Shown piece after piece: positions 3,616 to 59,212 of a DNA stretch of 64,000 bases. The first letter of the stretch is position 1; each line of letters begins with the position of its first letter. Below the pieces are notes generated by a model. The model had not been told where the DNA came from. It ran no database searches and saw only the letters and a program-made list of their open reading frames with translations. Source of the DNA: Gemmatales bacterium. Lineage in GTDB: Bacteria > Planctomycetota > Planctomycetia > Gemmatales > HRBIN36. Where the stretch lies: assembly GCA_041640595.1 (NCBI GenBank), contig JBEPZY010000008.1:66566-130565 (forward strand), in the 5' to 3' direction. The translations under genes were made by a program, and so were the position numbers.

Positions 3616-3701
3616 GCCGGCTTGTGTCGTAGCCAATATACATGCGGAAAGCCAGGAACAGATGCGATTATCGCCGTTCGAGCCGGCTTGCGTCGTAGCC
3701 A
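3616..3701. repeat. intergenic direct-repeat pair, 66-bp period
   Basis: GCCGGCTTGTGTCGTAGCCA at 3616 and GCCGGCTTGCGTCGTAGCCA at 3682 (1 mismatch in 20). The sequence between the copies is unrelated. Lies in the divergent guaA / 3805 intergenic region. Confidence 0.8.
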
Positions 3702-3804
3702 GCAAGCCCGGGCGTGGTTTCCAGGGTTGCACAAGCTCGCTCCGTTTACTATGATGGTACGGACACATGGAAGTTAGGAACCTGCCACGGTCGGGCACAG
3801 ATTC

Positions 3805-4260
3805 GTGAGGGAGGTCCCGTCCATGACGGCTGCATGCTCGCTGCCTGCGGAATGTGCCAGCGTCCTGGAAGAAGGGCGCAAGGAAGCGCTGCGGTACAAG
3901 TGGATCAAGAGCGAAAAAGCTGGCCGCGATCTCGGCCAGGCCGCTATTGACGAATGGTCGCGGCTGCACTGGTGGCCTCACCTGCGCCATTGCTGGTTCC
4001 TGCATCTGCAGGGGATTCGTTATTACCAGGAGTTTGACGAGCGGGATTTCGGTTTGTTGCATCGGGAGTTTACCGACCCGCAAGACCGCGAATTGTTGCG
4101 GCAAATTGTCGAACGCATTTACTATCACGGTGCGGAGAACCTCGACATTATCCTGTGGGCGCAGGAGAACCGGGTGGATATGGAACGTGTGCATCTGATT
4201 CTGGAGCGTCTGGACATCAATACTCGCCGGCTCCGTTGCAAGTTTCCCCTGGAAGGGTGA
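3805..4260 (+). CDS. conserved hypothetical protein
   Basis: 151-aa ORF with protein-like composition (YKWIKSEKAGRDLGQAAIDEW..., RQIVERIYYHGAENLDIILWAQEN). Family not recognised. The start could instead be the ATG at 3823. Confidence 0.6.
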   Translation: MREVPSMTAACSLPAECASVLEEGRKEALRYKWIKSEKAGRDLGQAAIDEWSRLHWWPHLRHCWFLHLQGIRYYQEFDERDFGLLHREFTDPQDRELLRQIVERIYYHGAENLDIILWAQENRVDMERVHLILERLDINTRRLRCKFPLEG

Positions 4261-4296
4261 ACTCGTCCTGGCTTCGGGCAACACACGCCAACACCC

Positions 4297-4716
4297 ATGA
4301 CGTTTGAATATCAGCGCCGTGTCGAATTCGCTGACACCGACCTGGCAGGAGTAGTGCACTTCACCAAGTTTTTCCAGTACATGGAAGAGGCGGAACATGC
4401 GTTTCTGCGTTCGCGTGGACTTTCGGTAGTGATGCGCTATGATGGCGAACAACTGGGCTGGCCACGTGTGGCAGCGGCATGTGAGTATTTCCGCCCGGCC
4501 TATTTTGAGGACGTGCTCACCATTCGCCTGCAGCTGACCCGCATCGGCAGCAAAGCGCTGAGTTACACGGCGGAGTTTTATCGGGGTGAGGAACTGCTTG
4601 CCCGCGGTCAGGTGACGACCTGTTGCTGCCGCATGGAAGCCAATGGTCGGATGACTGCCATCGAGCTCCCGGCCGAAATCCGTGCGAAGTTGTCCGCAAA
4701 CGAATCGGCTGGTTAA
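4297..4716 (+). CDS. acyl-CoA thioesterase, 4HBT/YbgC family
   Basis: 139 aa. Hot-dog fold signature RVEFADTDLAGVVHFTKFFQYMEEAEHAFLRS. Confidence 0.85.
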   Translation: MTFEYQRRVEFADTDLAGVVHFTKFFQYMEEAEHAFLRSRGLSVVMRYDGEQLGWPRVAAACEYFRPAYFEDVLTIRLQLTRIGSKALSYTAEFYRGEELLARGQVTTCCCRMEANGRMTAIELPAEIRAKLSANESAG

Positions 4717-7075: not shown

Positions 7076-7111
7076 GCATCGGGCCTTCCGAAGCAAGGGC
7101 CGGAAGAGTGC

Positions 7112-8095: not shown

Positions 8096-8135
8096 ATGCA
8101 TCAACTCGTCCTGATACATCGTTTGCAGCGGCAGC

Positions 8136-8229
8136 CAGCGAAGTTGTACGTAAGCGCGTCGGCAACGCCACCAGCCATGGCGACTGACGACCGGCGACCA
8201 GCAGCGAAGTTGCACGTTAGTGCGTGAGC
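8136..8229. repeat. intergenic direct-repeat pair, 66-bp period
   Basis: CAGCGAAGTTGTACGTAAGCGCGT at 8136 and CAGCGAAGTTGCACGTTAGTGCGT at 8202. Lies in the convergent ispE / 8288 intergenic region. Confidence 0.8.
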
Positions 8230-8287
8230 AGCCGACAACGTGGGCAACGTGGCGTTCATCCAGATGCGTCCCTGCACACAAATGGAA

Positions 8288-10364: not shown

Positions 10365-10579
10365 AGCGGAATCACCAGGACTGTTGAGGCGGGAGGACGG
10401 TCAGAATCACGCTTGCCATGAATCTCCGCGCAACCAGTTTCCCAGGCGCGGCTGGCTTGCGATATGGATAGAAAGCCGCACGCCAAACAGCAAGGCAGCA
10501 CCCCTTGCGGTGACGGATCCTGCCTTTTTCCACGCACGGTTCCGCCTTGCTCCGTCAACGCATCCACTTCCGCCCAAAA

Positions 10580-10689
10580 TTGCAGTGCCCGATGGGTCGG
10601 TTGTGACGAATGGCGGGGATAACTTTTGCTCGCAGGAGCCACCTGGGTTAACTTGCAGTGCCCGATTGGTTGCTTTTGACGAATGGCGC
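10580..10689. repeat. intergenic direct-repeat pair, 73-bp period
   Basis: 36-nt repeat TTGCAGTGCCCGATgGGTcGgTTgTGACGAATGGCG at 10580 and 10653 (4 mismatches), separated by about 37 nt of unrelated sequence. Confidence 0.85.
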
Positions 10690-10952
10690 TTACGGCGAGT
10701 TGGTTGTTTTGTATCGGCGATAGCGGTATTGCCATTCCGTCGAGGACGCAGGCGTCCAGGACTATTTCTCGGAAATCGTTTCACCAAACCGCACAGAGGG
10801 CAGCAGGCGACAAGCGCACGACAGCGTTGCCCAGGATGTTGCCGCAAGTCGTTTCTTGAAAGCGGACGCACACGCCGCTACGAGTTCTGCGCGATAAAAT
10901 AAACGAGGAGCAGATAACGCTACCGGGGCCGCGAACAATAGAGACCCTGACT

Positions 10953-11132: not shown

Positions 11133-11143
11133 TAGCGGGATTT

Positions 11144-14536: not shown

Positions 14537-14619
14537 GGGCTGGCCTGGAACCGAACGGCACGTCGAGTCTGGACAACACGCATCGCTAATTGGAATTTGA
14601 ACAAGACGCATCGCCATGC

Positions 14620-15680: not shown

Positions 15681-16060
15681 CGTGACAGCAACGGCGATAC
15701 GGCACACATTCGGACACGGTCATCACACCCGACCAGGAGCGATGGTCGCCAGTTCTCCGTGTGCTGCGAAACACCGTAACCATGATTCCGCACTTACCGG
15801 CAGTTCGATGCCGCAGGGGCAAGGTGAGCCACCACGCTGAGGTTGGGCCTGGCGTTGTCCGGACGGTCCGGAGGGAAAATTTTTGGCAAACTGGGCTTGA
15901 CATAATGACATGCAGTTGATTTTCTTTACAGCTGCAAAGCAGTTCGTCGCCCGGAACCGAACGGAGACGGAGATGCGAATGCGGAAGATCGCTGTCGGTG
16001 TGTGACCGACAGTCGTTGGTCAGAAGGGATTCGTCTCCACAAAAGGAAAGGAGGACACCT

Positions 16061-21616: not shown

Positions 21617-21732
21617 ACGCTCCATCACTGCCGGCTTCCGTTGACAAACGGCCCAATCTGGCAAGACATGGAACGGATAACAGGAAACTTTTTTGGGATG
21701 AGCTGGCACTCGTAGGTCGCCCAATCCGTGCC

Positions 21733-21828
21733 GGGTTACCGAATCTATGGCCGCTGAACCATCTGGTAATGCCGCGTTTACTAAAAGATGCCCAGCGCGG
21801 CGGGTTACCGATGCGTAGCGGCTGGACG
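21733..21828. repeat. intergenic direct-repeat pair, 69-bp period
   Basis: GGGTTACCGAatctatgGCCGCTGAAC at 21733 and GGGTTACCGAtgcgtagcGGCTGGAC at 21802. Confidence 0.6.
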
Positions 21829-21933
21829 CTGGCTGTGTTCCGTTTGCCCCAGGCCATTCGTCAGCGGGTCAACGGTATTTTCCGCAACCCCAACATGCCC
21901 CGTAGGACCGTCGTGATCTGCCACCTTCATCCG

Positions 21934-22464
21934 TCAACGGGGCAAAGGCACCTCCCGCAACTCCATTGGGCCGCCGCAACATTCGCATACGCCTTTTTCG
22001 GGATAGTCCCGGCGAATGGCACAGGTTTCGCACCAGTAGTACACTTCGTGAGGTACGCCGTTTTTCAGAGTGTAAAAGCGGTCAATCACCAGGACACTGC
22101 CTCCGCCCGTCAGTCGTCCCCGTACCTGCAACGGTCGGTTGAGTAAGCGTCCATCCTGAAACAACGCACGACTCCCCAGCGTCTTGACGATCGGTAGCAG
22201 CTTGCCGTCCTGAGTGCGTAACGCCAGAACGAAAGGCACCGCATCGGCGTCCACCTGCACATCGTCGGCTTTCAAAAGCTCGGCCAGCTTCACGACCTGA
22301 CCTTCCAGAGTCAATGTCGCAGTGCTCGGTTTCGCATCTGACCAAACCGCAACTTCCAGGCCCAATATCGCCGCCAACAGCAAAGGCAGCACGAACCACG
22401 GGGCGCGGCTGGAGGTGCTGGCAGGCTGGTTCCGACTATTTGCATGGCTGAGCGCGAACCCCAT
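21934..22464 (-). CDS. hypothetical exported protein with C-terminal Cys-rich (zinc-ribbon-like) motif
   Basis: Signal/anchor PWFVLPLLLAAILGLEVAVW. C-terminus YYWCETCAIRRDYPEKGVCECCGGPMEL. Start trimmed to MGFALSH so it no longer overlaps der. Confidence 0.6.
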   Translation of the reverse strand: MGFALSHANSRNQPASTSSRAPWFVLPLLLAAILGLEVAVWSDAKPSTATLTLEGQVVKLAELLKADDVQVDADAVPFVLALRTQDGKLLPIVKTLGSRALFQDGRLLNRPLQVRGRLTGGGSVLVIDRFYTLKNGVPHEVYYWCETCAIRRDYPEKGVCECCGGPMELREVPLPR

Positions 22465-22516
22465 GCTATCCCCCTTTCGATGTCGCTTGCTGCTGGCGCA
22501 AGAGCGTAGCTTTCGC

Positions 22517-27956: not shown

Positions 27957-29168
27957 ATGAGCACAGAAAGCCAGGAAAAATCGGCCTGCTGGCGGCTCCT
28001 CGGTGAACGCACTCGCCGACAACTGGAAGAACTCGATGCCTTGCTGGAACGGATGCTGGCCTTGCCACCCTTCGACCTGCCAGAAGAACAATCTTCAGAC
28101 CCACCCTCGTCCAGCATTCCAGGTTCGTCGCAGAAATTGACCGCAACAGGAACGCCAGGCAACTCGGGGAGCTCGACGAGCAACTCAGGTTCGGCGCAAA
28201 ACCATCCGCAGACCCCAACATCTACCGTCTCACCAGAAAAACCATCTGCGGCATCCGTCTCAGCAGCCCCGCACGCAGGCTCTGCCAACAACACAAAAAT
28301 TGCCGCTGCCGAACCAGCGGAAACCAGCAGCATCGCCCGAAGCAAGCCACCTGCGGAGGCGTTAGCACAAAGCGTCGCCATTTCCGCTGCCGCATCGGCA
28401 GGGGGAACCACTCCTGCTTCAGAACCGCCAGCGGTTTCAGAATCGGCATTGGCGGAGGCAAAGCCTGCTCCGTCCGCAGATGCCGGGATGAAGCCTAGGA
28501 ACGAAACGACCAATTCGGCTGAGCAGGCCCCTGCTGTTACAATCAGTGCATCCGCAAAACGGATCGCCAGCCGACCTGTTTCGGACGGGGAATCGGTCGA
28601 GCGCGTTGCCGAACCGGAGTCGGTCGTTTCCAGAACCGCCACGCCGCGTGAAACCAGAACAGCATCGGCAACGCATTCCTCCGCCAGTGGCACTCGTCCT
28701 GTCAACAATCCAACCCTGGCAGGCCCAAAGCTCCCGGAGTCTTCGACTATTACGCCCGTCGAAAGACACGATTCAGCTGCCCCAGCGATTCGTTCTGCCG
28801 CGGATGATTCCGAATCCAAGGCCAGTGCATCCGTTCACACCGAACCGCCTTTGCAGGCTTCCAGCGAACCCCCGAAAGGTCCCGCCTGGTTACTGCGAGA
28901 GGACACAGGTCCGGGCGATGCCGATGCTGACCGGTCGGTCGCTGACACCAGCAAAGACGCTTCCGGAAGCAACAACGGAGCAAACTCGCTTGACCAGTCA
29001 CAGTCAGGCTTTCGCTGGATCAGGCCGATTGCTGAAAATCTCGCTCAGCCTTTACGCTGGTTGTTCCTGACACCTACCGGCTCGAACGTGCTCGGTTGGA
29101 TTGGCATTCTGCTATTGCTCGGTTCGGCGGCATTCTGGCTCGGAGCCTGGCTGGGCTGGCACTGGTGA
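27957..29168 (+). CDS. tail-anchored Ser/Pro/Ala-rich (predicted disordered) protein
   Basis: SD GGAGGG lies 8 nt upstream of the ATG. Helical N-terminus (RRQLEELDALLERMLALPPF), about 300 aa of low-complexity S/P/A/T, then one C-terminal TM LGWIGILLLLGSAAFWLGAWLGW. Confidence 0.65.
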   Translation: MSTESQEKSACWRLLGERTRRQLEELDALLERMLALPPFDLPEEQSSDPPSSSIPGSSQKLTATGTPGNSGSSTSNSGSAQNHPQTPTSTVSPEKPSAASVSAAPHAGSANNTKIAAAEPAETSSIARSKPPAEALAQSVAISAAASAGGTTPASEPPAVSESALAEAKPAPSADAGMKPRNETTNSAEQAPAVTISASAKRIASRPVSDGESVERVAEPESVVSRTATPRETRTASATHSSASGTRPVNNPTLAGPKLPESSTITPVERHDSAAPAIRSAADDSESKASASVHTEPPLQASSEPPKGPAWLLREDTGPGDADADRSVADTSKDASGSNNGANSLDQSQSGFRWIRPIAENLAQPLRWLFLTPTGSNVLGWIGILLLLGSAAFWLGAWLGWHW

Positions 29169-29223
29169 TACCCTGACGCTTGCCAGTCAGGCATAGGCAT
29201 TTGTGAACCGCCAGTTGCTACCG

Positions 29224-29470
29224 GTGCACTACCGTTTCGCTAACGGTAATGCAGCATGGTGCGAGACCTGCAAGTCGAGCTGGGGCGAAAGTCAGCGTGT
29301 ATTACCGTTTTGCTAACAGGCAAGCCGCATAACGTCGTGGTAACGGATTACGACACGTTGTACCCTCAATTTGCACTACCGTTTTGCTAACAGTATGAAG
29401 CCAGTATCAAGGCCAGAGGCACAGTCTAACCTCAATGTGCACTACCGTTTTGCCAACAGGCAAGCCGCAT
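29224..29470. repeat. four phased copies (73/74/66 bp) of GTGCACTACCGTTTTGCTAACAGG-type motif
   Basis: Cores start at 29227, 29300, 29374 and 29440. Copies 2 and 4 share the extension AACAGGCAAGCCGCAT. Copies 3 and 4 share the upstream CCTCAAT, giving a dimeric higher-order unit of about 140-147 bp. Lies 640-890 bp upstream of the giant vWA gene. Confidence 0.9.
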
Positions 29471-35554: not shown

Positions 35555-36652
35555 GGCTCTCCTCAAAAGTCCTGACGGCCAGTTATCGCCTCGTTTCGAT
35601 CGTAAATGGGCTACGGACGATGGCTGCTGAAAAGTCGCACCACAATTGCCCGAAAATTCGCTACCACGCCGGACACACGATTCGGCAGCTATTGCTGACA
35701 AGGAATGCCCGTTTGATCCCGGCGAGTTGCTGCGGATTGTATTCGGACAAAAACTCGCTAACAAGATGCCTGCCATGGACGCGCCCTAACTTGAACGCAC
35801 ATTCGTATCGCCTGAGACGAATTGCAAACGCCGCGATTTCCAACCCTGCAAAACGCCTTTGCACGTTCAGCTTCATCGCATCATGGGTGCGTAACAAGCA
35901 AAGGCCGCGATGCCGGCACAGGTCGAACGCTCGCCAGCCAACCGATGCGATCCCGACGACCGGCCCCCGCTCGGTAACCTTTCCTGGCGGAAAACTGGAT
36001 CAGCACATACCCAGGACATTTCGCTAGCGATTGGCTCTCAAAAAAGCATTCCTTGCTGGAAGAGCAGGCAGTCGCACTGCGTCCTGTGCTCTGGTTTCCG
36101 CCAGCCGACAGCATGCTTGCCTTGCAGAAAATGGCATTCCCTCGCGGCGCAACGGATGTGGGATTGGCTCAGCTTGTCGAAACGACGTGGCGTTTCACGG
36201 CCAGTGATCGTGTTTTCGCAACTACGCTGCCCGAACGCACGGGAAAACCGGTCACAACACGGCTGTGCTCGCGTCCCACCGCACCTCATTCTCCATAGCG
36301 TTGTTGCCGGCTTGTCCGCAGGGAGAAAGTTCGCAACAACGGCTAAGGCAGGCGGATATGCGCAACGAAGCCGCCTTCTGTGCCAATTGGGCTAACCAGG
36401 AGCGCTAAACTCCCGGATACGAGCCCGGAATACGACGAAGCACCGTGCTTCTGAGTCCCATCGGGGAGCCTGCACCGCAAAACTGGCCAGCGAACGTGCG
36501 CATGGGCGGTGATGTTTTTCGGGAGCATCGCCAGACGGTGCGCTATTTTCCCACCCCGGACGGTGAGCGATTGTGTCTGGCGCAACGCTTTCGGAAGCGG
36601 CTGGCTACACCATCGCGCATCCGGCAAACGACGCAGTTGCGGCGGTTCTTGG

Positions 36653-36793: not shown

Positions 36794-36866
36794 GCTCGTT
36801 TCCTCCTGCCTTGTGGCGAATAGATTTGGCTTGTCCGCAAACCGAAAGCGGCATTAACTGCATCGG

Positions 36867-37030
36867 CAATACCTTCGGTAACGATTAAGCAAAACGTTGC
36901 CAAGCATACCGCTGCCCCATTCGCCACCACGCAATACCTTCGGTAACGGTTGAGCAAAAGGTTACCAAACATACCGCTACCCCATCCGCCACCACGCAAT
37001 ATCTTCGGTAACAATTAAGCAAAAGGCCCC
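36867..37030. repeat. 2.6 copies of a 65-bp tandem repeat
   Basis: CAATACCTTCGGTAACGATTAAGCAAAACGTTGCC... starts at 36867, 36932 and 36997. Each full unit can form a GGTAAC(G)/(C)GTTRCC hairpin. Lies 75-240 bp upstream of the small ORF. Confidence 0.92.
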
Positions 37031-37200
37031 GATGATCCCGCCGGCATGCCGCCCACTCGCCCAGCCAGAATCCCCGCAACCTCCAGGCCAACAGAATCCG
37101 CTTGGGCTGGCCGGAAGGCGAAGTTTTTCGCTGGTTCGGATCGCGAGTATCCGTTTCAGAGTATCAGCGTTCGGAGTGTCAGTCAGGGCCCGTCGCCGGG

Positions 37201-37583
37201 CGGGCTTGCCGCTACGTTGATGCAAGTGGACGTGGGCCCTGACAGGTCCGCATGGGCGATCTCTGCCTTGACAGGTGGGTTTGCGGCTATGCTGATGCAG
37301 GTGATGGCTGCCGGTGTTATCGTCAGGGTACCAGCGACCATTGGCAGCGAGGTTCCCTGCCACGTTGATGCAAACGGTGGCCGTCAGCGTTACCGTGGGG
37401 CGATCGACTGGCGGTTGACAGGCGGGTTTGCCGCTACTTTGATGCAGGTGATGGCTGCCGGTGTTATCGTCAGGGTACCAGCGACCATTGGCAGCGAGGT
37501 TCCCTGCCACGTTGATGCAAACGGTGGCCGTCAGCTTTACCGTGAGGCGATCGACTGGCGGTTGCCAGGCGGGTTTGCGGCTA
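37201..37583. repeat. phased tandem array: ~73.5-bp subunits in a 147-bp dimeric unit
   Basis: GGGYTTGCSGCTA occurs at 37201, 37277, 37424 and 37571. The 147-bp units 37277-37423 and 37424-37570 are nearly identical. Alternate subunits carry GCCACGTTGATGCAAACGG (about 37357 and 37504). The last copy contains the NTPase stop codon (37581-37583). Confidence 0.95.
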
Positions 37584-39731
37584 CTGTTCCGAAGGGAGAC
37601 AGAGCAACCGCAGCAGGGCTTCGCAATGAGTTTGCAAGAAGTCGGCCAGATTGGGCAGCGGCGTTTCCTCGGGCAGAGTCTCGGTGAGAGCGGCGAACCA
37701 GCGCGGGAAGGCGTACAATTGGGCCAGGTCTTCAGCGCCCAGCGGCTCCAATCGCAAACGTTTGCCGCGAGACTGTGCTTCTTCCCACAGGGATTTGCTT
37801 TTGCCCGTCAGGTGCACGTCTTCCGCCGGGCGAAGCAGGACGAGCACATCCATAGCCGGCGGTTCCAAATCTAAAGCGGCGAGTTTGACCTGTAAATCGC
37901 GGAGTTTGCCGGGACCTCGCCCCAAAAACAATCCCACACCGAGCCGCCAGGGCTGACCGTCGCGGCAAGCCCAGTGGGCCAGCGTGAGCACACCGTAGGT
38001 TGGATGATTGCCGAAAGTCCATTCCGGTACCACATGCTGCAACCGCCACGCGCCCACTTTCACGCCGTGCTCCTGACACGCTTGCAAAAACGCACCCAGT
38101 CCGGCCTGCAATTCGCGAGTGGCACCAGTGATGGCACCCTCGGGAGCCAGTCGGATCCGGGCATCGGCTAATGCTTGCTCCCATAGTTTTTCCAGCAATG
38201 CCGCGAGGGAATCGCCCCCCTTGCTGCATTTGCTCCCGTCGGAAGTGTCGGAATGCTGCGGCGATTTTGTTTCCACAGCCTTGAGCACGGTAACTTGTTT
38301 GACCTCCGGTGGAATCGGTTCCGGTGGCGGAACTTCGACGTAGCCGACGTTTCCGGCAGCCCCATCCGCGACTGGCTCGGTTTCCTCGCTGGTTTCCTGC
38401 CCGTACACCAGACGGTCGAACAATCGGCGAAACTGTTGCAGCATGTCGCGCAATGTCGGTTCGGTGCGGGCAATTCGCAACACCTGTTCTTCATTGAACG
38501 GGAAAATCGGTGAAATTTCCGAGCCGAACTGTTCCAAAACTGGCCGCAAGCGCACCACCACCACCTTGCGAACCAGATCGGGCGTCGGTGGATCCAGCCG
38601 CACCGCTGCAACGCTTCCATAACCGGGCAGGTGAAGCGGATGATTGAGGCGATCCTGAATGTACCCGTCCAGGCTCGGCACGAAACGGTTCCAGAGTCCA
38701 CGTTCGGCAAAAATCAAAAAGCAGATGCCATCCACCTGATGCAGCACCTGCACCAGCCCTGCGAAGAAAGACTCGCTCACTTTGTGGCCATCTTCAGTAC
38801 GCCGAACCAGCAGCAGGTCCTCAAGCTGGTCGAAGGCGACCACTACCGGAATCCGCAACGTCAAGCAGATGTCCATAACTGCCCGCAACTGAGCCAGCAC
38901 CAGTTCCTGTCGGCTCGGTTGCACCTGGAAATCCAGTTCGGTGAAGCCGGTGGTCAGGAAATGTGCCAGGTCGTCCTCCTGTCCCAGGAGAATGGCCCGG
39001 GCAAAACCCTGATAAATACGGCGACGCATTTGCCCGGCCACACTGTGAACTTCGTTGCGATCCACAAACTGGCACACCTGTTCGTACACCAAACGCGGGT
39101 CCATCTGCACCTGCAACAGTGCCTGGCGAACCGGCAAAGTGCTGGAACGACCGAGCAGCTGGATCAACCATTGACAACGCTCCTCAGCCTGGGCCTGGCC
39201 CAGCCCTAACCGTCGCGCCCAGCGGGTCAAGGGCGGGGCTGGGAAAAGCTCCAGCCGAGCCGGGGCGTCGAGGGTTTGCAACCAGTTGCGCACCAGGCGT
39301 CGGGTCAGTTCCTCGCCGATATACACCAGCGGACGCACACCACCCTGGCAGGCACCGCTCAGCAAGGTGTCAATCAACTGAAAGAGCAGATATTCGAGAA
39401 AATCGCAACCTTTCTGATAGGTGCTGGGAGTTACCAGCAGCTGGCGACCCCGACCTGGACCGTGTTTGATGGAATGCAACAGATGGGTTTTCCCCGAACC
39501 TTTGTTGCCGAGGATGGGCAAAACTTCCGAATGGCGTCGTCCATCCTGGCGATACAATTCCACCGCGGCCAGAACCATCTCCCGTTCGCGGGCATACAGC
39601 TCCGGAACATGGTAACGGGCACAGAGTTCATCATCGGGATGGCGAGCAAAATAATTGCGAAACGGATTACCGTGTCGCCGCAGGGCTTCCAATGCCCGTT
39701 CGTGCACGTGAGTAGTAAGTGTGGCAGTCAT
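37581..39731 (-). CDS. P-loop NTPase (ORC/AAA_16/STAND-like) with large uncharacterised C-terminal region
   Basis: 716 aa. Walker A GNKGSGKT (39486-39509). Walker B-like VVVAFDQLED (38817-38846), about 220 aa downstream, implying a long helical insertion. No recognisable effector domain. Confidence 0.85.
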   Translation of the reverse strand: MTATLTTHVHERALEALRRHGNPFRNYFARHPDDELCARYHVPELYAREREMVLAAVELYRQDGRRHSEVLPILGNKGSGKTHLLHSIKHGPGRGRQLLVTPSTYQKGCDFLEYLLFQLIDTLLSGACQGGVRPLVYIGEELTRRLVRNWLQTLDAPARLELFPAPPLTRWARRLGLGQAQAEERCQWLIQLLGRSSTLPVRQALLQVQMDPRLVYEQVCQFVDRNEVHSVAGQMRRRIYQGFARAILLGQEDDLAHFLTTGFTELDFQVQPSRQELVLAQLRAVMDICLTLRIPVVVAFDQLEDLLLVRRTEDGHKVSESFFAGLVQVLHQVDGICFLIFAERGLWNRFVPSLDGYIQDRLNHPLHLPGYGSVAAVRLDPPTPDLVRKVVVVRLRPVLEQFGSEISPIFPFNEEQVLRIARTEPTLRDMLQQFRRLFDRLVYGQETSEETEPVADGAAGNVGYVEVPPPEPIPPEVKQVTVLKAVETKSPQHSDTSDGSKCSKGGDSLAALLEKLWEQALADARIRLAPEGAITGATRELQAGLGAFLQACQEHGVKVGAWRLQHVVPEWTFGNHPTYGVLTLAHWACRDGQPWRLGVGLFLGRGPGKLRDLQVKLAALDLEPPAMDVLVLLRPAEDVHLTGKSKSLWEEAQSRGKRLRLEPLGAEDLAQLYAFPRWFAALTETLPEETPLPNLADFLQTHCEALLRLLCLPSEQ

Positions 39732-41406: not shown

Positions 41407-41493
41407 GGTTCGACCCCGAGCAAATCAGCCAAGTTGCCTGCTGGCTTAGAGCATCGCCTGAAGGATTCTGTGTCGGATCGCCTGAGAGATCAG

Positions 41494-43578
41494 CTAAGCC
41501 GGTTGGTTGCTCTCAGCCGGATGAGCATCGAGCCAGGCACGAATCGCCTCCTGTCCGATCAGCGGTTGCTGACACGTTCCCTGCTCGCACAAGTAAATGG
41601 CGGGAGTCGGTGATAGCTTGTCGGCCAGTAGTGCAAACGGAGCGTAGCCGTGTGCCGGAAGAGTCGGATCGAGCCACGCCACGATGCGTCGCGGTTCAAA
41701 AGTTTGCCACAACGAAGCCCAGGCCTGCTGCAACACTGGCTCGGTCACGGGGCCCGACAGGACAATTTCGCGCACTGGTCCGATGGCGAAATCCACGCCG
41801 CATAGGAAGTGCCCGAACGCCGTCGGCAGGCGTTCGGCCAGTGGTGTCAGCCAGCGGAAAATGGCGTCGGCACAGTCACGGAAATCGGCTTGGCCTGTGA
41901 AATGCCATAAGCGCAGGAGCATCCAGGCAGCGGCACTGTTGCCCGAAGGAGTCGAACCGTCCTGGGCATCTTTCTGCCGAACCAGGAGCGGTTCATGGGC
42001 CAGTTGGGCGTAGAACAAGCCTCCGCCTTCCGGATCACGAAAACGTGCCATCATCTGCTCGGCCAGCACCACCGTATTTTCCAGCCAGTGTATTTCACCT
42101 GTGCATTCGTAAAGCGACAGCAGGGCATCTGCGAACAAGGCGTAGTCGTCCAGGAAGGCGGGAATTTCCGGTAAACGATCCGGCAAACACGCGTGGAAAA
42201 GTTCGCCCGACCTCGGCTGCAAATGGGCGAGAATCCAGTTCGCGGCCCGACACGCCAGCTCGAGATAATGTGGATCAAAGACGCGGCCAGCCAGCGCCAG
42301 TGCCTGAATCGTCAGGGCGTTCCAGGCCGTGAGGATTTTTTCGTCGCGCGACGGTGCAATGCGTTGCTGTCGGGCTGCCAGTAATCGGCCCCGCGCTTCC
42401 TCCAGCCGGGCGAGCAACTCCTGCTCGGACATCTTGAGCAAGCGTGCGCAGACCGGCAGCGGTTTCGCCTGAGCCAAGACCTGTTTTCCTTCCCAGTTGC
42501 CAGTCTCGGTAACATCGTAAACGTAGGCGACAATATCATACAGTTCGGGTGGCAAAATCGCCCGCAGCTCCGTTGCCGTCCAGACATAATACTTGCCTTC
42601 TTCACCTTCGCTGTCGGCGTCGAGACTGCTGAAAAACGGGCCGTCCGGAGCCATCATCTCGCGTTCCAGCCACGTCAACGTTTGCTCCACAACCTGGCGA
42701 TAACGAGCCACACCGCTCACCAGCCAGGCTTCGGTATAAGCCAGGCTCAAAAGGGCGTTGTCGTACAACATTTTCTCGAAATGCGGTACCAACCAGCGCT
42801 CATCGGTGCTGTAACGGTGAAAACCGCCGCCCACGTGATCGTAAATGCCACCGCTGGCCATGCCATCCAGGGTAAGCTTCACCATTTCCAAAATGTCTGC
42901 CTGCCGAAAGCGGTGAAAGGCACGCAACAAGGCACGCAGTTCCATAGCATGAGGAAATTTAGGAGCGCCGGCTAACCCGCCGTAAACGCGATCCAGATTC
43001 TGCTGCCATACCTCGACTAAGTGCCGCAACAATTCTTCGGAAGGCTCACTTTCTGGCAGGGATAGATGCAGGGTTTTTTGCAAATGTGCAGCAACTTCGT
43101 CGGCGGTCTGAAGGACATCGGCACGGCGTAATTGCCAGGCCTGGGCTAGTGCGACGATCACATCGCGGAATCCCGGTCGCCCCCAGCGCCGCTCCGGTGG
43201 GAAATAGGTGCCGGCATAAAATGGCTTCAGGTCGGGCGTCAGGAAGACCGACATCGGCCAGCCTCCCTGTCCGGTCATGGCTACGACCGCCTGCATGTAC
43301 AACTGATCCAAATCCGGCCGCTCTTCGCGATCCACCTTGATGTTCACGAAATGCTCATTGAGTAAGCGTGCAATCTCAGGGTTTTCAAAACTTTCCCGTT
43401 CCATGACATGGCACCAGTGGCAGGCCGCATAACCGATACTCAGGAAGATAGGCTTGTTCTCCTGCCGTGCCCGTTGCAGTGCCTCATCCGACCACGGATA
43501 CCAGTCCACCGGATTATCGGCGTGTTGCCGCAGGTATGGACTTGCCGAGTCCGCCAGCCGATTCTTTTTGCCCGTCAT
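41494..43578 (-). CDS. thioredoxin-domain protein, DUF255 / YyaL family
   Basis: NRLADSASPYLRQHADNPVDWYPWSDEALQRARQENKPIFLSIGYAACHWCHVME, followed by a six-hairpin glycosidase-like C-terminal region. 694 aa. Confidence 0.93.
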   Translation of the reverse strand: MTGKKNRLADSASPYLRQHADNPVDWYPWSDEALQRARQENKPIFLSIGYAACHWCHVMERESFENPEIARLLNEHFVNIKVDREERPDLDQLYMQAVVAMTGQGGWPMSVFLTPDLKPFYAGTYFPPERRWGRPGFRDVIVALAQAWQLRRADVLQTADEVAAHLQKTLHLSLPESEPSEELLRHLVEVWQQNLDRVYGGLAGAPKFPHAMELRALLRAFHRFRQADILEMVKLTLDGMASGGIYDHVGGGFHRYSTDERWLVPHFEKMLYDNALLSLAYTEAWLVSGVARYRQVVEQTLTWLEREMMAPDGPFFSSLDADSEGEEGKYYVWTATELRAILPPELYDIVAYVYDVTETGNWEGKQVLAQAKPLPVCARLLKMSEQELLARLEEARGRLLAARQQRIAPSRDEKILTAWNALTIQALALAGRVFDPHYLELACRAANWILAHLQPRSGELFHACLPDRLPEIPAFLDDYALFADALLSLYECTGEIHWLENTVVLAEQMMARFRDPEGGGLFYAQLAHEPLLVRQKDAQDGSTPSGNSAAAWMLLRLWHFTGQADFRDCADAIFRWLTPLAERLPTAFGHFLCGVDFAIGPVREIVLSGPVTEPVLQQAWASLWQTFEPRRIVAWLDPTLPAHGYAPFALLADKLSPTPAIYLCEQGTCQQPLIGQEAIRAWLDAHPAESNQPA

Positions 43579-44915: not shown

Positions 44916-44964
44916 TACGGCAAGCCAGGCCGCACCATTTCGCCCGCCAGCTGCACATCGGGTT

Positions 44965-45060
44965 TCGGATTTGCACAATCGAACAGGCGAAAGGAGGTCG
45001 TTGGCGGGAGAAAGTTGACCAATACGGGCCTCGGATTTGAACAACCGAACAGGTGAAGCC
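44965..45060. repeat. intergenic direct-repeat pair, 66-bp period
   Basis: TCGGATTTGCACAATCGAACAGGCGAAAGG at 44965 and TCGGATTTGAACAACCGAACAGGTGAAGCC at 45031. A weak third copy starts at 45091. Confidence 0.8.
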
Positions 45061-45210
45061 ACGCACAAGTGCCTCTTGTTTGCTCGCGGCTCGGATTCGG
45101 GTATTTCCGCACACTTCACATCCGGCAACCCAGTCGCGGCCATAGATTCGCCTCCATGCCCAGCTATCAAAGGCCAGCGGGTAGAACAAATTACTGCAAC
45201 CCAGTCAAGG

Positions 45211-45249
45211 CCAAACAAAATCGGCTCCGAAGCCGATGCTCCGGAGCCG
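45211..45249 (-). terminator. rho-independent terminator candidate
   Basis: On the minus strand: CGGCTCCG-N12-CGGAGCCG (perfect 8-bp stem) followed by ATTTTGTTTGG. Lies 45 nt downstream of the stop of the 99-aa gene. Confidence 0.6.
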
Positions 45250-45293
45250 ACGGTCAGGCCAGTCTCAGTTGTGAACCGCGTTCCCGGCAGTCG

Positions 45294-46799: not shown

Positions 46800-49097
46800 T
46801 CATTGACAACGGACTGCGATCACGGCGCTGTTATCCGAGCCGCCATAAGCATTGGCCAGGTTGACCAGCCGGCGGGCACACATTTCTGCGGAATCGGCCC
46901 GCTGAATCATCTCGGCCAGAGTTGCCTCGTCCACGTGGCCAGTCAAACCGTCGCTGCACAGGATCAGCCAATCTCCAGGTTTGAGCGTCACGGCCAAGGT
47001 CTGCGGCTCGACAAACGGCTGGGCACCCAGGGCTTGCTGCAATTCGTTTTTTCGCGGATGCTGTTCCGCCTCTTCCGGTGTCAGCTGACCCAGCTCGACC
47101 AGCCGATTCACCAGCGTGTGGTCACGGGTCAACTGTCGGAGCTGGCCTTCGGAATAAAGGTAAGTGCGACTGTCGCCCACATGAGCGATGACCGCCTGCG
47201 AACCGCAGATGACCAGCATCTCGCAGGTACAGCCCATGCCGCGCTTTCCCTGCGGTGAACGCGAAAACTGATACAGGTGCTGGTTTACGTCGCGGAGCAA
47301 GTCAAAAAGAAACTTGCGGCAGGCGTCGGTATCGAAAGCGCCGTCGGGCGCTTCGCCCAGCAAAGATTTTGCGTAATCGCTTTGAAAGAAACGCCGGCGA
47401 AGCTCGTGAATGGCCATGGCGGCGGCAACTTCGCCGGCTTCGTAACCTCCCATGCCATCGCACAAAATAGCCAGCACCGTTTCGCCCAACCGTTCTTCAA
47501 ATCCCGAGCTGGAGTGCCAGAAGGCGAATGCGTCTTCGTTATTGCTCCGGAGCTTGCCGATATTGCTCCAGCCAGCAATATCCAATCGGGTAATGTTCAA
47601 CTGCTGGCCGGCGTTGCGCAGTGCACGGGCCAGTTCATCCCAGCCGGTAGGATCGGTGCGAGCAGCTTCGTCTGTCGGAAAACGGTGCTGTTTATCGCGG
47701 ACAAAAGTTTTCATGACCAGCCGGGCGTATGCCGGATGGGCGTCGGGGAAACGGAACACCAGCGGTTTGGGAACCCACGAGCTTTCAAAGTCAGTTTCCG
47801 TCAATTCGTGGCCGAGGTACAGCGCGTACAAAACCGCTCCGAAACTATAAAGCGGCGAACGAGCATCCACTTCGTGAGGTTCCAGCACCAGTTCCGGCGG
47901 AGTGTAGGGAGTCGCTGCCAGGTGCGTTCGCGCCGTATAGGGCAAACTCACCAGCAGGCTCAGATCGGTGAGCGTCAGCTGGCCGCGTTCGTTGAGTCGC
48001 AGCAATTCCGGCTTCAGATACTCCGGAATCGCTCCCGCCGTTGCCAGCGCTTTCAAGGAGTCTGCGAAATCGGCCAGCAAGTTGAAGCGAGCCGGCATCG
48101 TGTAAGCTGGGTCGTCAAACACCTGCCACAGATCCGGTCCGCTGGCCGCTTCTTCCACCGCAAAAACACTTCGCCCATCGCACAACACATCGAGTACCCG
48201 TGGCCAGCTGGCATGTTGCACGGTTTCCAGCAGAGCAATTTCCCATCCTAACTCGGGCCAGGCGGTGCCTATTTCGGCAGGGACATGGAACCGCCCGATA
48301 GCCACGGTGGCGCCGTTGTTCTGGCTGACCGCTTGCTGCACCAGGATGACTGGACGATTGTCATGACTCCGGTCTCGTGCCAGATAGCGAATCGTGTTTA
48401 CCCGCCGCGACATCTCCTGGACGATCTCATAGCGTCCCGCCACCAGCGTGCCCGGTGGCAACGAGTCGGCCGACGGAAGCGCAGCCGCTGTCGGCAAGGC
48501 AGTCATTTCACCGTCAGGAAAACTGTAACCGCAATCCTGGCAGAACTGGCTTTCCAGGGGCAGAGTGGTTCCGCAGGCCGGGCAGGTTTTCGCCTCAACA
48601 GCTAAAACCGGTGTGGTGGGCGGCAATGTCGCCGCTTGGTCTTTCGGAGAAGACTGGTCGCTCGGGGTCATCGGAACCTCGACTGCATGGGCCCCTGTTG
48701 GCGGGCTACCAATCGGTTGAGCCACTGGCAAGGAAGTGCCCAGCTTTTCGGCAGATCTCGATTCCACGGACGGCAGGGGCGATGCCATACCGGTAGCCGT
48801 TCCGGCAGCGTGCTCCGCCCGGTTAACGAAATCCTCGAGCCAGCTGGTACGCGGGGCCATACCGGCATCCATTCCAGTGCTATGCGACGCCGAAGCTGGT
48901 GGAACCAATTCCGCGACCGGCAAACTGTCCACGGTAACTCCCGGCGGGAGCGTGCTGGGGTTCAAAACCACGGCCGTAGGCAAATCTTCTCCCGCACCCT
49001 GAGCAGTTGGGGTGTTCGTAACTGAGCCAGCCCCGGTCGCAGGTCCGGTTGCCGATGGCATGCTGGACGGCTGATGGCTTTCCGCTTCTGACGGCAT
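46800..49097 (-). CDS. zinc ribbon / pseudokinase / PP2C phosphatase fusion protein
   Basis: ATG at 49097 with GCAGGAG upstream. CPACGTTLPLESQFCQDCG ribbon. The kinase-like domain lacks the G-loop, VAIK Lys, HRD Asp (EYLKPELL) and DFG (TDLS). PP2C motifs: NEDAF, CDGMGGYEAGEVAA, HVGDSRTY, LCSDGL, GGSDNSAVI. Confidence 0.9.
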   Translation of the reverse strand: MPSEAESHQPSSMPSATGPATGAGSVTNTPTAQGAGEDLPTAVVLNPSTLPPGVTVDSLPVAELVPPASASHSTGMDAGMAPRTSWLEDFVNRAEHAAGTATGMASPLPSVESRSAEKLGTSLPVAQPIGSPPTGAHAVEVPMTPSDQSSPKDQAATLPPTTPVLAVEAKTCPACGTTLPLESQFCQDCGYSFPDGEMTALPTAAALPSADSLPPGTLVAGRYEIVQEMSRRVNTIRYLARDRSHDNRPVILVQQAVSQNNGATVAIGRFHVPAEIGTAWPELGWEIALLETVQHASWPRVLDVLCDGRSVFAVEEAASGPDLWQVFDDPAYTMPARFNLLADFADSLKALATAGAIPEYLKPELLRLNERGQLTLTDLSLLVSLPYTARTHLAATPYTPPELVLEPHEVDARSPLYSFGAVLYALYLGHELTETDFESSWVPKPLVFRFPDAHPAYARLVMKTFVRDKQHRFPTDEAARTDPTGWDELARALRNAGQQLNITRLDIAGWSNIGKLRSNNEDAFAFWHSSSGFEERLGETVLAILCDGMGGYEAGEVAAAMAIHELRRRFFQSDYAKSLLGEAPDGAFDTDACRKFLFDLLRDVNQHLYQFSRSPQGKRGMGCTCEMLVICGSQAVIAHVGDSRTYLYSEGQLRQLTRDHTLVNRLVELGQLTPEEAEQHPRKNELQQALGAQPFVEPQTLAVTLKPGDWLILCSDGLTGHVDEATLAEMIQRADSAEMCARRLVNLANAYGGSDNSAVIAVRCQ

Positions 49098-49113
49098 GAT
49101 TGGCTCCTGCAGA

Positions 49114-50631
49114 CTAACGCAATCGGTTACCACAGTGAATGCAAAAGCGGCTGCCCATGCGGTTGGACTTACCGCAGTGCTGACAGGGTGGCGACAGATC
49201 GGTCAACGGAGCGGCACATTTGACGCAGTAAGGCTGGCGAACAGGATTTACCGCCTGACAACGGGGACAATTTATCTCCCGGGTCACCCGCCGCGCCTCC
49301 AGATCTGCCTTGAACTCCCGTGCGGTGAAATACCGGTCGTTGACGTCTTCGGAAAGATTGATGCGAATCAGCTCGTAGAACCAGCGGTGAGCCGGGGGAA
49401 TAGCACCATCCGGCATGGCGAGAAGTTCATCAATTTCCTTGGCGGTGTAAAAACCTTCCGGTGGCCGACCGGTTGCCAGATGGTACAGAGTTCCCGCCAA
49501 GGCGAACAGATCGCTGCGAGGCTCCGGTTTACCCACAATTTGCTCGGGCGGAGCATACCCTTCGGTGTACACTCGCGTCTTGGCTTGCAAACGTGTGCGT
49601 GAAGTGCGGCCCAGGTCGCGGGCCGTGCCAAAGTCTATCATCTTGATACTCCGACCATCGGCCAGCAACATAATGTTGTCCGGCTTGAGGTCGCGGTGAA
49701 CCACCGGCGGCTCCATGCGGTGCATGTGATCCAGAACATCGCAAATCTGTTTCCCCCACTCGATCACCATGTCCAGCGGGAACGGCCGATGATTGTTTTG
49801 TTCCATCACCTTGACCAGGTCGGTGCCCTCAATGAACTCCATGACCAGGTGCGCCGACTGCCCTTTCTGGATGAACTCGTAAATCCGCGGAACGATCGGC
49901 AAGGAAGACAGGGCGCGAAGTATCTCGGCCTCGCGCCGGAAAAAGCTGAGCCGAATCTTGAACTCCTCCGGGTCGGGACAGATCATGTCTTTGATGGCGA
50001 CGGTCTGGCCGGTACGCGTGTCCACAGCGCGATAGACCGCGCCGAAACCTCCCATGGCGATCAACTTCTCAATACGGTAACGCCCTTCGAGCATACTGCC
50101 GGGTGCGCTGGGCAAAAGGCAATTGCACCGCTGGCAGTAACGTTCCCCGACCGGATTCGCGGCACCGCACGCGGGGTTGGTGCAGATCACCACCGGTGCG
50201 CCGGTTTCGTCGGCCCGTGCAGCTTCGGAGGTCCAGCCACACTCCAGGCACATGGTCGCGCCGGGAGGTAAAGCCGCCCCACACGCCGGACATTGCCCCA
50301 ATGGTCCAACCACACGGGTCGGCGGACGGATTACCACGGACTCTGCGCTGAGATTGTCGGAACTTGCATCCCCCGGCCTGGAAGCAGGCGAACCCGCAGG
50401 TGCGGACGGCATGGGGGCAGTCCGTCCCGGTGCTGCGCTCGAAGATGGGGTCATGCCTGCGGAAGACGGGGCACCGACGCTGCCAGGAGCTGGAGCGGTG
50501 ACTTGACCCGCCTGGGCTACCGTTGCCGTGAACACTTTCTGGCAGGTGGGACAACGCACCGGATGGTTGGCAAACTGGTCGGCAATTTGAGCCGGTTTGC
50601 GGCAGTGTGGACAATGGACGATCAGGGGCAT
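49114..50631 (-). CDS. Ser/Thr protein kinase flanked by five zinc ribbons
   Basis: Kinase motifs GGFGAVYRAV, VAIKDM, HRDLKPDNIML, DFGTARD and GYAPPE. CxxC...CxxC ribbons: one at the N-terminus, two before the kinase domain and two at the C-terminus. Confidence 0.93.
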   Translation of the reverse strand: MPLIVHCPHCRKPAQIADQFANHPVRCPTCQKVFTATVAQAGQVTAPAPGSVGAPSSAGMTPSSSAAPGRTAPMPSAPAGSPASRPGDASSDNLSAESVVIRPPTRVVGPLGQCPACGAALPPGATMCLECGWTSEAARADETGAPVVICTNPACGAANPVGERYCQRCNCLLPSAPGSMLEGRYRIEKLIAMGGFGAVYRAVDTRTGQTVAIKDMICPDPEEFKIRLSFFRREAEILRALSSLPIVPRIYEFIQKGQSAHLVMEFIEGTDLVKVMEQNNHRPFPLDMVIEWGKQICDVLDHMHRMEPPVVHRDLKPDNIMLLADGRSIKMIDFGTARDLGRTSRTRLQAKTRVYTEGYAPPEQIVGKPEPRSDLFALAGTLYHLATGRPPEGFYTAKEIDELLAMPDGAIPPAHRWFYELIRINLSEDVNDRYFTAREFKADLEARRVTREINCPRCQAVNPVRQPYCVKCAAPLTDLSPPCQHCGKSNRMGSRFCIHCGNRLR

Positions 50632-57212: not shown

Positions 57213-57830
57213 TTACTGCGATCGAGTTAGCAACGTCGGGAGCAGAATTTCCACGGCCCGGCGGACGTATTTGCTGAGGATATCTACTTCCAGGTTGACT
57301 GTTTCGCCCACGCGACGCAGCCCCAACGTCGTGTGTGCAAGCGTGTAGGGAATGAGTGCCACGCTGAAGCGGTCAGGCTGCACCTCAACCAGGGTCAAGC
57401 TAACGCCATCCAGGGCTACCGAACCTTTGGGAACCATGTACGCGAGGAGTTCCGGCGCACAGGTGAACCAGACCAGATCAAAGTCCTGCTGGTGTTGCCG
57501 TGAAAGTACCGTGGCCAGTCCGTCCACATGGCCCTGAACCCAGTGCCCACCCAGCGGAGCACCAAGACGAACCGGACGCTCGAGATTGACTGGTTGGCCA
57601 GGCGATAGCGACCCCAGGTTGGTACGCGACAGGGTTTCCGGCGCCAGGTCGAAATGCAAGTGCTCGCCTTCGACAGCCACCACCGTCAGGCACACCCCGT
57701 TGACTGCCAGGCTATCCCCTGGTCGGAGTTCACGAGCCAGACCGGCGTGGCTGAGAACCAAACGCCGACCGCTGTTATGCTCGCGTAGTTCCACGACCGT
57801 GCCCAGGATTTCGATTATGCCGGTGAACAT
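57213..57830 (-). CDS. ribE: riboflavin synthase alpha chain
   Basis: MFTGIIEILGTV. Duplicated lumazine-binding halves (NGVCLTV / DGVSLTL). Confidence 0.93.
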   Translation of the reverse strand: MFTGIIEILGTVVELREHNSGRRLVLSHAGLARELRPGDSLAVNGVCLTVVAVEGEHLHFDLAPETLSRTNLGSLSPGQPVNLERPVRLGAPLGGHWVQGHVDGLATVLSRQHQQDFDLVWFTCAPELLAYMVPKGSVALDGVSLTLVEVQPDRFSVALIPYTLAHTTLGLRRVGETVNLEVDILSKYVRRAVEILLPTLLTRSQ

Positions 57831-57930
57831 GGCGAATCTCCAGAAGTGTTCTCGATGCCGCTCGCTGGTCTGGCAAGTGAAATGCTACCAGCGCTGAGCT
57901 TTGTATGTTCGGAACCGGCACATGGCATCG

Positions 57931-58800
57931 TTAGCGGTCGGGGCGAACCACCTCAGCTGCTTCGAGAGCTTTAGCGACGGGGCGACGTACAAGCAACCCA
58001 GTTGGCCCCAGGAAAATATACAACCAGCAGAGCCCCACCAGAGCCACTTCCTTCAGCAACACAACCAGGAATCCGGCCAGGATCAACTCGACCAGTTCGG
58101 TAAAAGGTCGGCGTCGGTGCAACAACTTCGTGGCCAGATGCGGATACGGGATTCGCGAGACCATCAGCACAGCGACCAGCGTGGCACCAATCGGAGCCAG
58201 CCAGTGCACTGCCTCGCGTATTTCTTCCGGCAACCAGGGATAAGCCATGGGAGAATAGCGTACCAAAACCAGCGAAGCGAGACAGCCAGCCGCAGCTGGG
58301 GATGGCAGGCCCTGAAAACTGCGATGGCTTTTTGCGTCGAGGCTGGTCTGAACATTGAACCGGGCCAGCCGAAGCACTGCACACACCATGTACAGCAGGG
58401 CAACCAGCAGAAAAATCTCCCCGGCCAGTCGTCCGGAAAAATGACTGCCCAGCTGCAGCACTAAAAAACCCGGTGCCGCTCCGAAACTGATCGCATCACA
58501 AAGGCTGTCGAGTTCGGCGCCAAACTGACTCGCCGTCCGCGACCGCCGTGCCAGATACCCATCGAACATGTCGAAAACCATAGCGGCGAAGATCAACCAT
58601 CCTGCTACGTAAAAAGCGGTCTCGTTGGGCCAATCGGAAGCCAAACCGGCTCCGGTTGCCAGCATGATGGCCGTGAAACCACACGCGGCATTGCCCAGGG
58701 TGCACAGCGTCGGCAAAAGCGCAATTCTTCGCAAAGGCCGGTTCTCCCGTAAGCGCCCGCAGTCCGGTCGGCATGCCCTTACTGCATGACCGTAGGGCAA
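57931..58800 (-). CDS. pssA: CDP-diacylglycerol--serine O-phosphatidyltransferase
   Basis: CDP-alcohol phosphatidyltransferase motif DMFDGYLARRSRTASQFGAELDSLCD in a polytopic protein. Confidence 0.85.
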   Translation of the reverse strand: MPYGHAVRACRPDCGRLRENRPLRRIALLPTLCTLGNAACGFTAIMLATGAGLASDWPNETAFYVAGWLIFAAMVFDMFDGYLARRSRTASQFGAELDSLCDAISFGAAPGFLVLQLGSHFSGRLAGEIFLLVALLYMVCAVLRLARFNVQTSLDAKSHRSFQGLPSPAAAGCLASLVLVRYSPMAYPWLPEEIREAVHWLAPIGATLVAVLMVSRIPYPHLATKLLHRRRPFTELVELILAGFLVVLLKEVALVGLCWLYIFLGPTGLLVRRPVAKALEAAEVVRPDR

Positions 58801-59110
58801 GGATTTGGCATCATTATACTCGATCGAAGAGACGCAATAAAGCAGAATTTATCACGCCCCCATCTGCCCCGGCGAGAGCATGAACCACCCAGGCCGTAAC
58901 CGTGCAGTTTACTAAAGCACCGAACCAGTGGCGGATGTTCGACCAGTAACAGCTATCTGGTCGGTGCAGAAAGCACCAGCGAATCTCCGGTGGCCTGGCT
59001 GCCACTGTGGAAAGGCTAGCTGACACAACGGTAAGCCGTGATTCGATACCAAATACATACCGGGGCGGGACAACCGATGTGCAGGCCGGCCAAGTTCGCA
59101 ATGGGGTGCA

Positions 59111-59212
59111 GGATAACGATTTATTCTGCGTCGGAGCATCGCGCGAGTCCACCAACTGAAGCGGAGGTCGCAACAACGGTAACGATTCATTGAGCGTCGG
59201 AACATCGCACCG
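59111..59212. repeat. intergenic direct-repeat pair, 66-bp period
   Basis: GGATAACGATTTATTCTGCGTCGGAGCATCGCGC (59111) and GGTAACGATTCATTGAGCGTCGGAACATCGCAC (59178). A weaker third copy starts near 59046 (CAACGGTAAGCCGTGATTCG). Confidence 0.75.

Follow-up and report, generated by a model that had tools for sequence, protein, structure and literature searches.

Short DNA repeats spaced at regular distances are known from several bacterial systems. The mycobacterial interspersed repetitive unit-variable number tandem repeat (MIRU-VNTR) and ETR/QUB loci of Mycobacterium tuberculosis are intergenic, consist of units of tens of bp in one to five copies, and differ between close strains by slippage; MIRUs form one homologous family, and the range of unit sizes is characteristic of the organism. 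Templated mutagenesis at quasi-repeats, described by Ripley, Lovett and others, copies short patches of nearby DNA with sharp boundaries and little or no prior homology, and its known cases are quasi-palindromes or adjacent repeats without a preferred distance. Repetitive extragenic palindromic (REP) sequences and bacterial interspersed mosaic elements (BIMEs) are short, intergenic and often clustered, and REPs are imperfect palindromes of large families. In a survey of prokaryotic satellites, the only mention of units near 65 nt is as CRISPR (PMC6749651). Here we describe a set of direct repeats in a window (the whole stretch analysed, 64 kb at positions 66,566 to 130,565 of contig JBEPZY010000008.1) from the core chromosome of a planctomycete related to Gemmatales. 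At each locus a repeated core (R) flanks spacer DNA (S), and the lag or step, R plus S, stays within 64-77 bp. These loci have the dimensions of CRISPR without its copy number or repeat identity, as the original prediction made from this sequence had remarked, and R differs among the 15 loci. We class them as slippage-driven micro-minisatellites with a clade-specific length ruler.

A fixed step between short repeats

The original prediction listed nine repeat loci in the window. All nine were recovered to within 6 bp and with the same periods, and six more were added (starting at 21854, 28106, 35822, 41423, 45125 and 48779), which brings the total to about 15 with lags of roughly 64-77 bp. A scan over lags of 25-300 bp that required 17 or more matches in 20, with the repeat regions at 14.5-15.9 kb and 32.5-33.3 kb masked, returned only lags of 65, 66 (five times), 71, 72, 73 and 74 bp, or near-multiples of about two or three periods (130, 140, 147, 213, 222 and 294 bp). 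At looser thresholds, 12-16 segments fell in the bins for lags 65-74, compared with 0.07-0.12 per 5-lag bin in shuffled sequence. Exact 9-mers gave 22 matches at lags 64-75, against about 2-3 per 6-lag bin at other lags. The lags cover 64-77 bp continuously and show no preference for helical multiples. Comparison with shuffled sequence, the check put forward with the original prediction, strongly favours the signal in the window, and the geometry of repeats around unrelated spacers at a fixed 64-74 bp period proved to be non-random, with lag scans far above shuffles. The fixed-step signal is real and stronger than first reported; around 17% of the non-coding DNA of the window falls within such loci.

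Relatives were found by homologue searches, and their contigs are numbered L082-L097. L088 shares 99.7% DNA identity with the window, and L094, L097 and L093 about 98%. L084 and L089 belong to one shared assembly at about 91-93%, L087, L090 and L091 are at about 90%, and L092, L095 and L096 share about 84-85% protein identity. L082, L083 and L085 represent sister species. A metagenome scan for additional strains yielded four loci. The window GuaA is 71-74% identical to its best GTDB representatives, which comprise Gemmataceae and Gemmatales metagenome-assembled genomes (MAGs), and a search for an exact GuaA record found none.

The loci are as follows, unstranded unless a strand is given (ORF, open reading frame).

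3616..3701: 20-nt pair, lag 66, matching at 19/20 positions with sharp edges; between guaA (minus) and a 151-aa ORF (plus), upstream of a promoter-like site at 3727; L087 also has the two copies, just 65% alike.
8136..8230: 29-nt pair, lag 66; between convergent GHMP-kinase and GGACT genes; in L087 the copies are 59% alike and a 7-bp spacer deletion shortens the period to 59.
10577..10688: 39-nt pair (10577/10650), lag 73; in a 588-bp divergent intergenic region, where the L088 gene calls leave the interval matching 10365-10952 empty.
21727..21811: 16-nt pair (21727/21796), lag 69; convergent intergenic DNA after an ABC-3 permease gene.
21854..21965: pair of about 39 nt (21854/21927), lag 73; copy 2 overlaps the 3' end of the ORF at 21934-22524.
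28106..28202, plus strand: pair of about 31 nt (28106/28172), lag 66, equal to 22 codons; in a low-complexity 403-aa ORF, with a gene also called at this locus in L089.
29225..29461: array of four R copies of 24-40 nt (29225/29298/29372/29438), lags 73, 74 and 66; mosaic edge extensions and unrelated spacers; two of the four R copies in L089, a 140-bp difference.
35822..35911: 14-16-nt pair (35822/35896), lag 74.
36866..37029: R-S-R-S-R array (36866/36931/36996) of 65-bp units whose S copies are 89% alike; a small ORF on the minus strand has the array in its upstream region.
37197..37590: array of five units of 73-76 bp forming a 147-bp dimer repeat; the spacers are homologous to one another though diverged (p = 0.009 and 0.03); the final, partial copy overlaps the stop codon that ends the gene at 37581-39731 (minus).
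41423..41510: pair of about 23 nt (41423/41488), lag 65; between two minus-strand genes; copies 78% alike in L089 versus 65% in the window.
44959..45057: 33-nt pair (44959/45025), lag 66; 44-140 bp upstream of the likely start at 44915 (minus) of a secreted-protein gene; within a coding sequence annotated in L089, where codon-position analysis puts the locus upstream of the real start codon.
45125..45213: 18-nt pair (45125/45196), lag 71; spacer highly conserved.
48779..48875, minus strand: 25-nt pair (48779/48851), lag 72, equal to 24 codons; in the kinase/PP2C gene at 46800-49133; the weakest case, at 80% identity.
59114..59208: 29-nt pair (59114/59180), lag 66; upstream of a Y-family polymerase gene.

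The R copies measure 14-40 nt and the spacers 24-60 nt; R varies in length while R plus S does not, and the edges of R are sharp at most loci. Three loci are true small arrays (29.2 kb, 36.9 kb and 37.2 kb). As originally described, the gene contexts are divergent, convergent and tandem. The loci are non-coding except for two cases in coding sequence with lags of 66 and 72, each a multiple of three. The gene for an efflux pump likewise contains an internal exact 10-mer at lag 69, also a multiple of three.

The repeated cores differ from locus to locus, as had been claimed, and in all-against-all BLAST the loci share nothing longer than 9-15-mers. Additional copies of R were absent from the sequences of the window and relatives searched. 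Gapped alignments of S with the DNA after the second R copy or before the first were not significant in 10 pairs. Such residual homology across whole units is significant solely within the 37.2 kb array, and no match was found that would make S a copy of other DNA in the window. An inverted match of 9-12 nt to the upstream flank occurs in S at 3/15 loci, which is suggestive and not general. Fold z-scores of 22 R copies centre near 0 relative to shuffles and so indicate no hairpin propensity. Small palindromes occur in some R copies (TACCGTT-N5-AACGGTA at 29230; GGTAAC..GTTACC, read by eye, at 36.9 kb). Loose sequence cores had been proposed to link several loci. This is partly borne out. TTGC on either strand reaches 37.5 per kb in R, 9.8 in spacers and 14.5 in other intergenic DNA; GCGGCCATAGATTCG and CGGTAACGATT each join just two loci.

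Gain and loss of whole periods between strains

The comparison with related genomes that had been suggested alongside the original prediction was carried out, and copy number changes by whole periods between strains. Against two conspecific strains, all indels of at least 4 bp in the window measure 74, 69, 74 and 147 bp. When relatives of about 90% identity are compared, indels of at least 60 bp are mostly single or double steps (65, 72, 74, 75, 130, 133, 140 and 148 bp), and the other large gaps are all located at 43.6-43.9 kb, where the sequences do not really align. Whole-period gain and loss dominates length change in non-coding DNA.

Individual loci illustrate this. At 35.8 kb, the conspecific L094 is short of exactly one 74-bp period between the 14-16-nt R copies; L089 and L090 retain both copies, and the difference is therefore a clean one-period deletion in L094. 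The 36.9 kb array has one R copy in L090, two in L089, three in the window and four in L094, and the 37.2 kb array has one dimer fewer in L089, L090 and L097. The intergenic region at 43579-43917 spans 330 bp in the window; in L089 (5232-6122) and L090 (5180-6121) it takes up about 920 bp. Three different arrays with units of 64-72 bp make up the extra DNA; their copy number differs between L089 and L090, and their units of 65 and 72 nt are 76-85% alike across the whole unit. Nearly all of this region differs between genomes that are about 91% identical overall, with just a 33-nt patch in common.

Other differences concern the repeats themselves. L092 has a separate R-S-R at the 36.9 kb site, with lag 68 and a different R boundary; its spacer cannot be aligned to that of the window, while the flanks can. 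At the 3616 locus, the first R copy of L084 carries variants otherwise found in the second R copy of L087, which fits patch copying between copies. Independent assemblies from JGI, ENA, NCBI and Logan show the same structures.

Contig ends and breaks were also seen at these loci. Position 1 of L084 (JBRBZS010000058.1) is the end of a MAG contig and lies within the 3616 repeat locus. In L097, the sequence to the left of the point matching 37090 is unlike the window, which suggests a rearrangement or an assembly break at the arrays.

Sequence identity between orthologous loci was measured at seven loci in eleven pairwise comparisons. R is 82.7% identical (508 nt), S 84.2% (505 nt) and the flanks 85.7% (1298 nt); R identity is not above that of S or flanks, and R is therefore under no extra constraint. 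The R copies are not conserved as functional sites. Similarity between the first and second R copy peaks in the genome in which a locus was first detected (L089 in the case of the 41.4 kb locus, the window in the other six), and this fits neutral decay together with ascertainment bias. A class of elements, as implied by the original prediction, is not what emerges from these data: the loci form no sequence family, have no conserved structure, show no extra conservation of R, and gain or lose whole periods.

Distribution among related planctomycetes

At lags of 64-75 the window has 17 matches per 100 kb, L089 has 41 and L092 has 13; L095 has two matches, at lags 72 and 73. The sites in relatives frequently differ from those in the window. 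Among the sister species, L085 has no match and L082/L083 have one, which corresponds to the background rate. A set of 1.14 Mb from 80 other planctomycetes gave 3.1 matches per 100 kb, which is background level (2.7 per equal bin). Because it is present in L089, L092 and L095 and not enriched in the sister species or other planctomycetes, the signal is a property of one clade that extends to relatives at about 84% protein identity.

Origin of the repeats

We favour the reading, with confidence about evenly balanced by doubt, that the loci are for the most part neutral footprints, left by a mutational process specific to this Gemmatales-like group of planctomycetes, and not elements. In a first step, a growing strand would, during replication or repair, briefly mispair 64-77 nt away; a patch of 14-40 nt would be copied before the strand returns, leaving two R copies around a pre-existing and unrelated S. 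We infer this patch copying from the sharp edges of R, from the variable length of R under a constant R plus S and from the unrelated spacers, as well as from the mosaic extensions at 29.2 kb and the variants shared by the first R copy of L084 and the second of L087. The second step is an observed one, in which slipped-strand mispairing or unequal recombination between R copies adds or removes whole R+S units. Pairs in this way become small arrays or single copies, and intergenic DNA changes length in quanta of 65-75 bp. In the third step, likewise observed, copies diverge in the absence of selection, and coding DNA keeps only those steps that are multiples of three.

Several points weigh against this reading. 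The material covered amounts to about 64 kb of this genome and some 120 kb from relatives. The comparisons caught no R-S-R pair at its birth, each pair checked being older than the split of the genomes compared, and consequently copying of a patch in place is not separable from insertion of new DNA with target duplication. The separate R-S-R of L092 at 36.9 kb might just as well reflect a hot spot of repeated insertion. TTGC is present in 11/13 loci and is 2.6-fold enriched in R, which a purely random process would not predict. We know of no mechanism that imposes a step of 64-77 nt. The Escherichia coli SSB tetramer wraps 65 nt of DNA, and a relation of the step to one SSB wrap, or to the footprint of a promoter-bound RNA polymerase, is speculation from numerical closeness.

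Among the alternatives, ordinary tandem duplication of whole 64-77 bp units, most of which then decay while short-tract gene conversion keeps R alike, seems unlikely as the general origin. Such arrays do exist at 36.9 kb, at 37.2 kb and in L089/L090, the DNA past the last R at 36.9 kb weakly resembles S (p = 0.09), and the variant pattern at 3616 suggests conversion between copies. However, the inferred ancestral copies at 3616 are identical over 20 nt with zero similarity adjacent to them, and conversion that needs no flanking homology amounts to the patch-copy model. S also evolves no faster than R between orthologues, so that S and its supposed twin should not be saturated while R is 85-100% alike, and the preferred unit length would still need an explanation. 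Ectopic integration by Cas1-Cas2, in which spacer-sized DNA is inserted and a segment of the target is duplicated to leave a 'neo-CRISPR' R-S-R at each landing site, is improbable. Off-target integration of this kind, described by Nivala and colleagues in 2018 (cited in 10.1101/148544), is reportedly the sole known mechanism to yield R-S-R structures with locus-specific repeats and unrelated spacers. It would account for the spacers of 10 pairs that are unrelated to local DNA and for the different spacers of L092 and the window at one site, and CRISPR arrays typically have periods of 65-67 bp (PMC6749651). Yet the rulers of Cas1-Cas2 set R and S separately, whereas R ranges over 14-40 nt here under a constant sum, and the documented growth of arrays is by duplication of existing units instead of new spacers at one end. 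The G+C content of the spacers is host-like (0.568), three spacer consensus patterns had no match in IMG/VR (a test of low power), and no canonical CRISPR array or cas gene was found among the 58 window ORFs scanned or at related loci.

We give still less credence to functional cis-regulatory repeats, that is, paired operator- or promoter-like sites occupied by two DNA-binding complexes side by side. The majority of loci lie upstream of genes, R is enriched in TTGC cores that resemble the -35 box in the conserved 3727 promoter, and some R copies hold small palindromes, such as those at 29230 and 36.9 kb. A regulatory function is nevertheless unlikely because R is no more conserved than S or flanks, because copy number varies from one to four among close strains, because two loci lie between convergent gene ends, and because lags are spread continuously instead of falling on helical multiples. 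Copies also decay and the period shifts in relatives (59 bp in L087), a different protein would be needed at each locus under one spacing rule, and R copies with a -35-like TTGC hexamer mostly lack, by eye, a -10-like hexamer at 16-18 nt. A miniature mobile or REP-like element family, or a chance or assembly artefact, is effectively refuted. A true REP-like hairpin cluster does exist elsewhere in the window (14.6-15.8 kb) and the L084 contig does end within a repeat locus, but the loci are dissimilar beyond 9-15-mers, R has no hairpin propensity and no extra copies, the structures recur across independent assemblies, and the enrichment is far above shuffles.

Promoters were considered separately. 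Promoter duplication was rejected, as the -10 element is by eye mostly missing at the right spacing, and a formal scan of 28900-30200 found no promoter in that interval. Sigma-54 and extracytoplasmic function (ECF) sigma factor promoter patterns were rejected by eye on mismatched spacing.

Beyond the footprints of a mutational process that we favour, a bolder and tentative possibility, which we regard as doubtful, is that a molecular ruler peculiar to this thermophilic Gemmatales clade writes 64-77-bp-phased duplications throughout non-coding DNA and is the main source of new intergenic sequence. Such a ruler might be a promiscuous Cas1-Cas2-type integrase or the geometry of the replisome or repair machinery, for example an SSB wrap.

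Gene content and other features of the window

A Pfam scan of 58 window ORFs assigned housekeeping functions to 41 (guaA, cobA-hemD, a znuABC-like transporter, engA, mnmA, kinases and others) and gave no family match for 17; domains of cas proteins, transposases, integrases and reverse transcriptases were absent from this set. Rfam at gathering score and ARAGORN for tRNA gave zero matches across the 64 kb.

The region at 14560-15800 contains GC-rich hairpin units, GAGCGG[C/G]GGGCGT[C/A]AGCCC[G/C]CCGTGG, in both orientations. The cluster forms a 370-bp higher-order repeat in 2.6 copies and is REP/BIME-like and distinct from the 65-75 bp repeats. Within the gene at 30092-34774, positions 32630-33013 encode in-frame tandem repeats rich in Met, Gly and Pro (ATGATGATGGG...) with periods of 21, 42, 63 and 93. 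Its product has 1560 aa and a VWA_3 domain, and the gene differs in length from L089 by 72 bp at the Met-rich repeats.

The promoter-like sequence TTGCAC-N17-TATGAT at 3727-3755 is kept in the window, L087 and L082 (81% DNA identity), while the surrounding intergenic DNA cannot be aligned. It is the only clear promoter-like site and lies outside the repeats. The small conserved ORF at about 36657-36797 (minus) has an AGGAGG ribosome-binding site, and gene calls in L090 and L092 give it 46 aa; its upstream region contains the 36.9 kb array. The block at 45137-45260 is near-invariant among the window, L089 and L090 and has two terminal hairpins (ATCGGCTCCGAAGCCGAT, GCTCCGGAGC). It is located downstream of the minus-strand gene at 45294-45593 and could be a terminator and/or a small RNA. 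A palindrome-rich stretch at 59270-59300 (TGTATAGTGTATATGTGTACACA), directly upstream of the Y-family DNA polymerase gene at 59385-60842, is possibly an SOS-type operator.

Comparison with known repeat systems

A sharp, clade-confined step common to unrelated sequences is a readable signature of a specific replication, repair or integration event. Identification of the ruler would account for the creation and turnover of intergenic DNA in these bacteria, would provide a natural system for template switching or off-target CRISPR adaptation, and would alert annotators to CRISPR-like geometry that arises without CRISPR. The loci are usable for typing strains of this uncultured lineage, and contigs in its metagenome assemblies probably break at them.

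The original prediction could name no described class of elements that fits, and this stands: full-text literature searches found the pattern described neither in planctomycetes nor elsewhere. MIRU, neo-CRISPR and templated mutagenesis each resemble part of it, and none combines locus-specific sequences with a genome-wide fixed step. With CRISPR, and in particular with the off-target case, the loci share the repeat-spacer-repeat arrangement, a period of 65-75 bp, spacers unrelated to the flanks and locus-specific pseudo-repeats. They differ in their variable repeat length, in the lack of a common repeat, in that no leader was seen and no cas gene among the 58 window ORFs scanned, in growth by unit duplication and in neutral decay. 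Membership in CRISPR was rejected on the first, second and fourth of these differences. REPs and BIMEs are matched in shortness, intergenic position and frequent clustering, whereas the repeats here are neither imperfect palindromes nor members of large families. Templated mutagenesis offers the short patches, sharp boundaries and little or no prior homology, and to our knowledge no genome-wide fixed step of 64-77 nt has been described for it.

As in minisatellites and VNTRs, copy number is polymorphic by whole units (65, 69, 74, 140, 147 and 148 bp; one to four copies). The whole-unit homology of such repeats is seen at the 36.9 and 37.2 kb loci and in the arrays of L089/L090, and R alone is shared in 10 pairs. 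MIRU-VNTR loci are alike in their intergenic position, small copy numbers, slippage differences and organism-specific unit size. Unlike the single MIRU family, each locus here has its own sequence, and mostly just a core of 14-40 nt is repeated. The size window is also much tighter than in MIRU-VNTR; it accounts for close repeats with few exceptions, and for every long indel that separates the compared conspecific strains.

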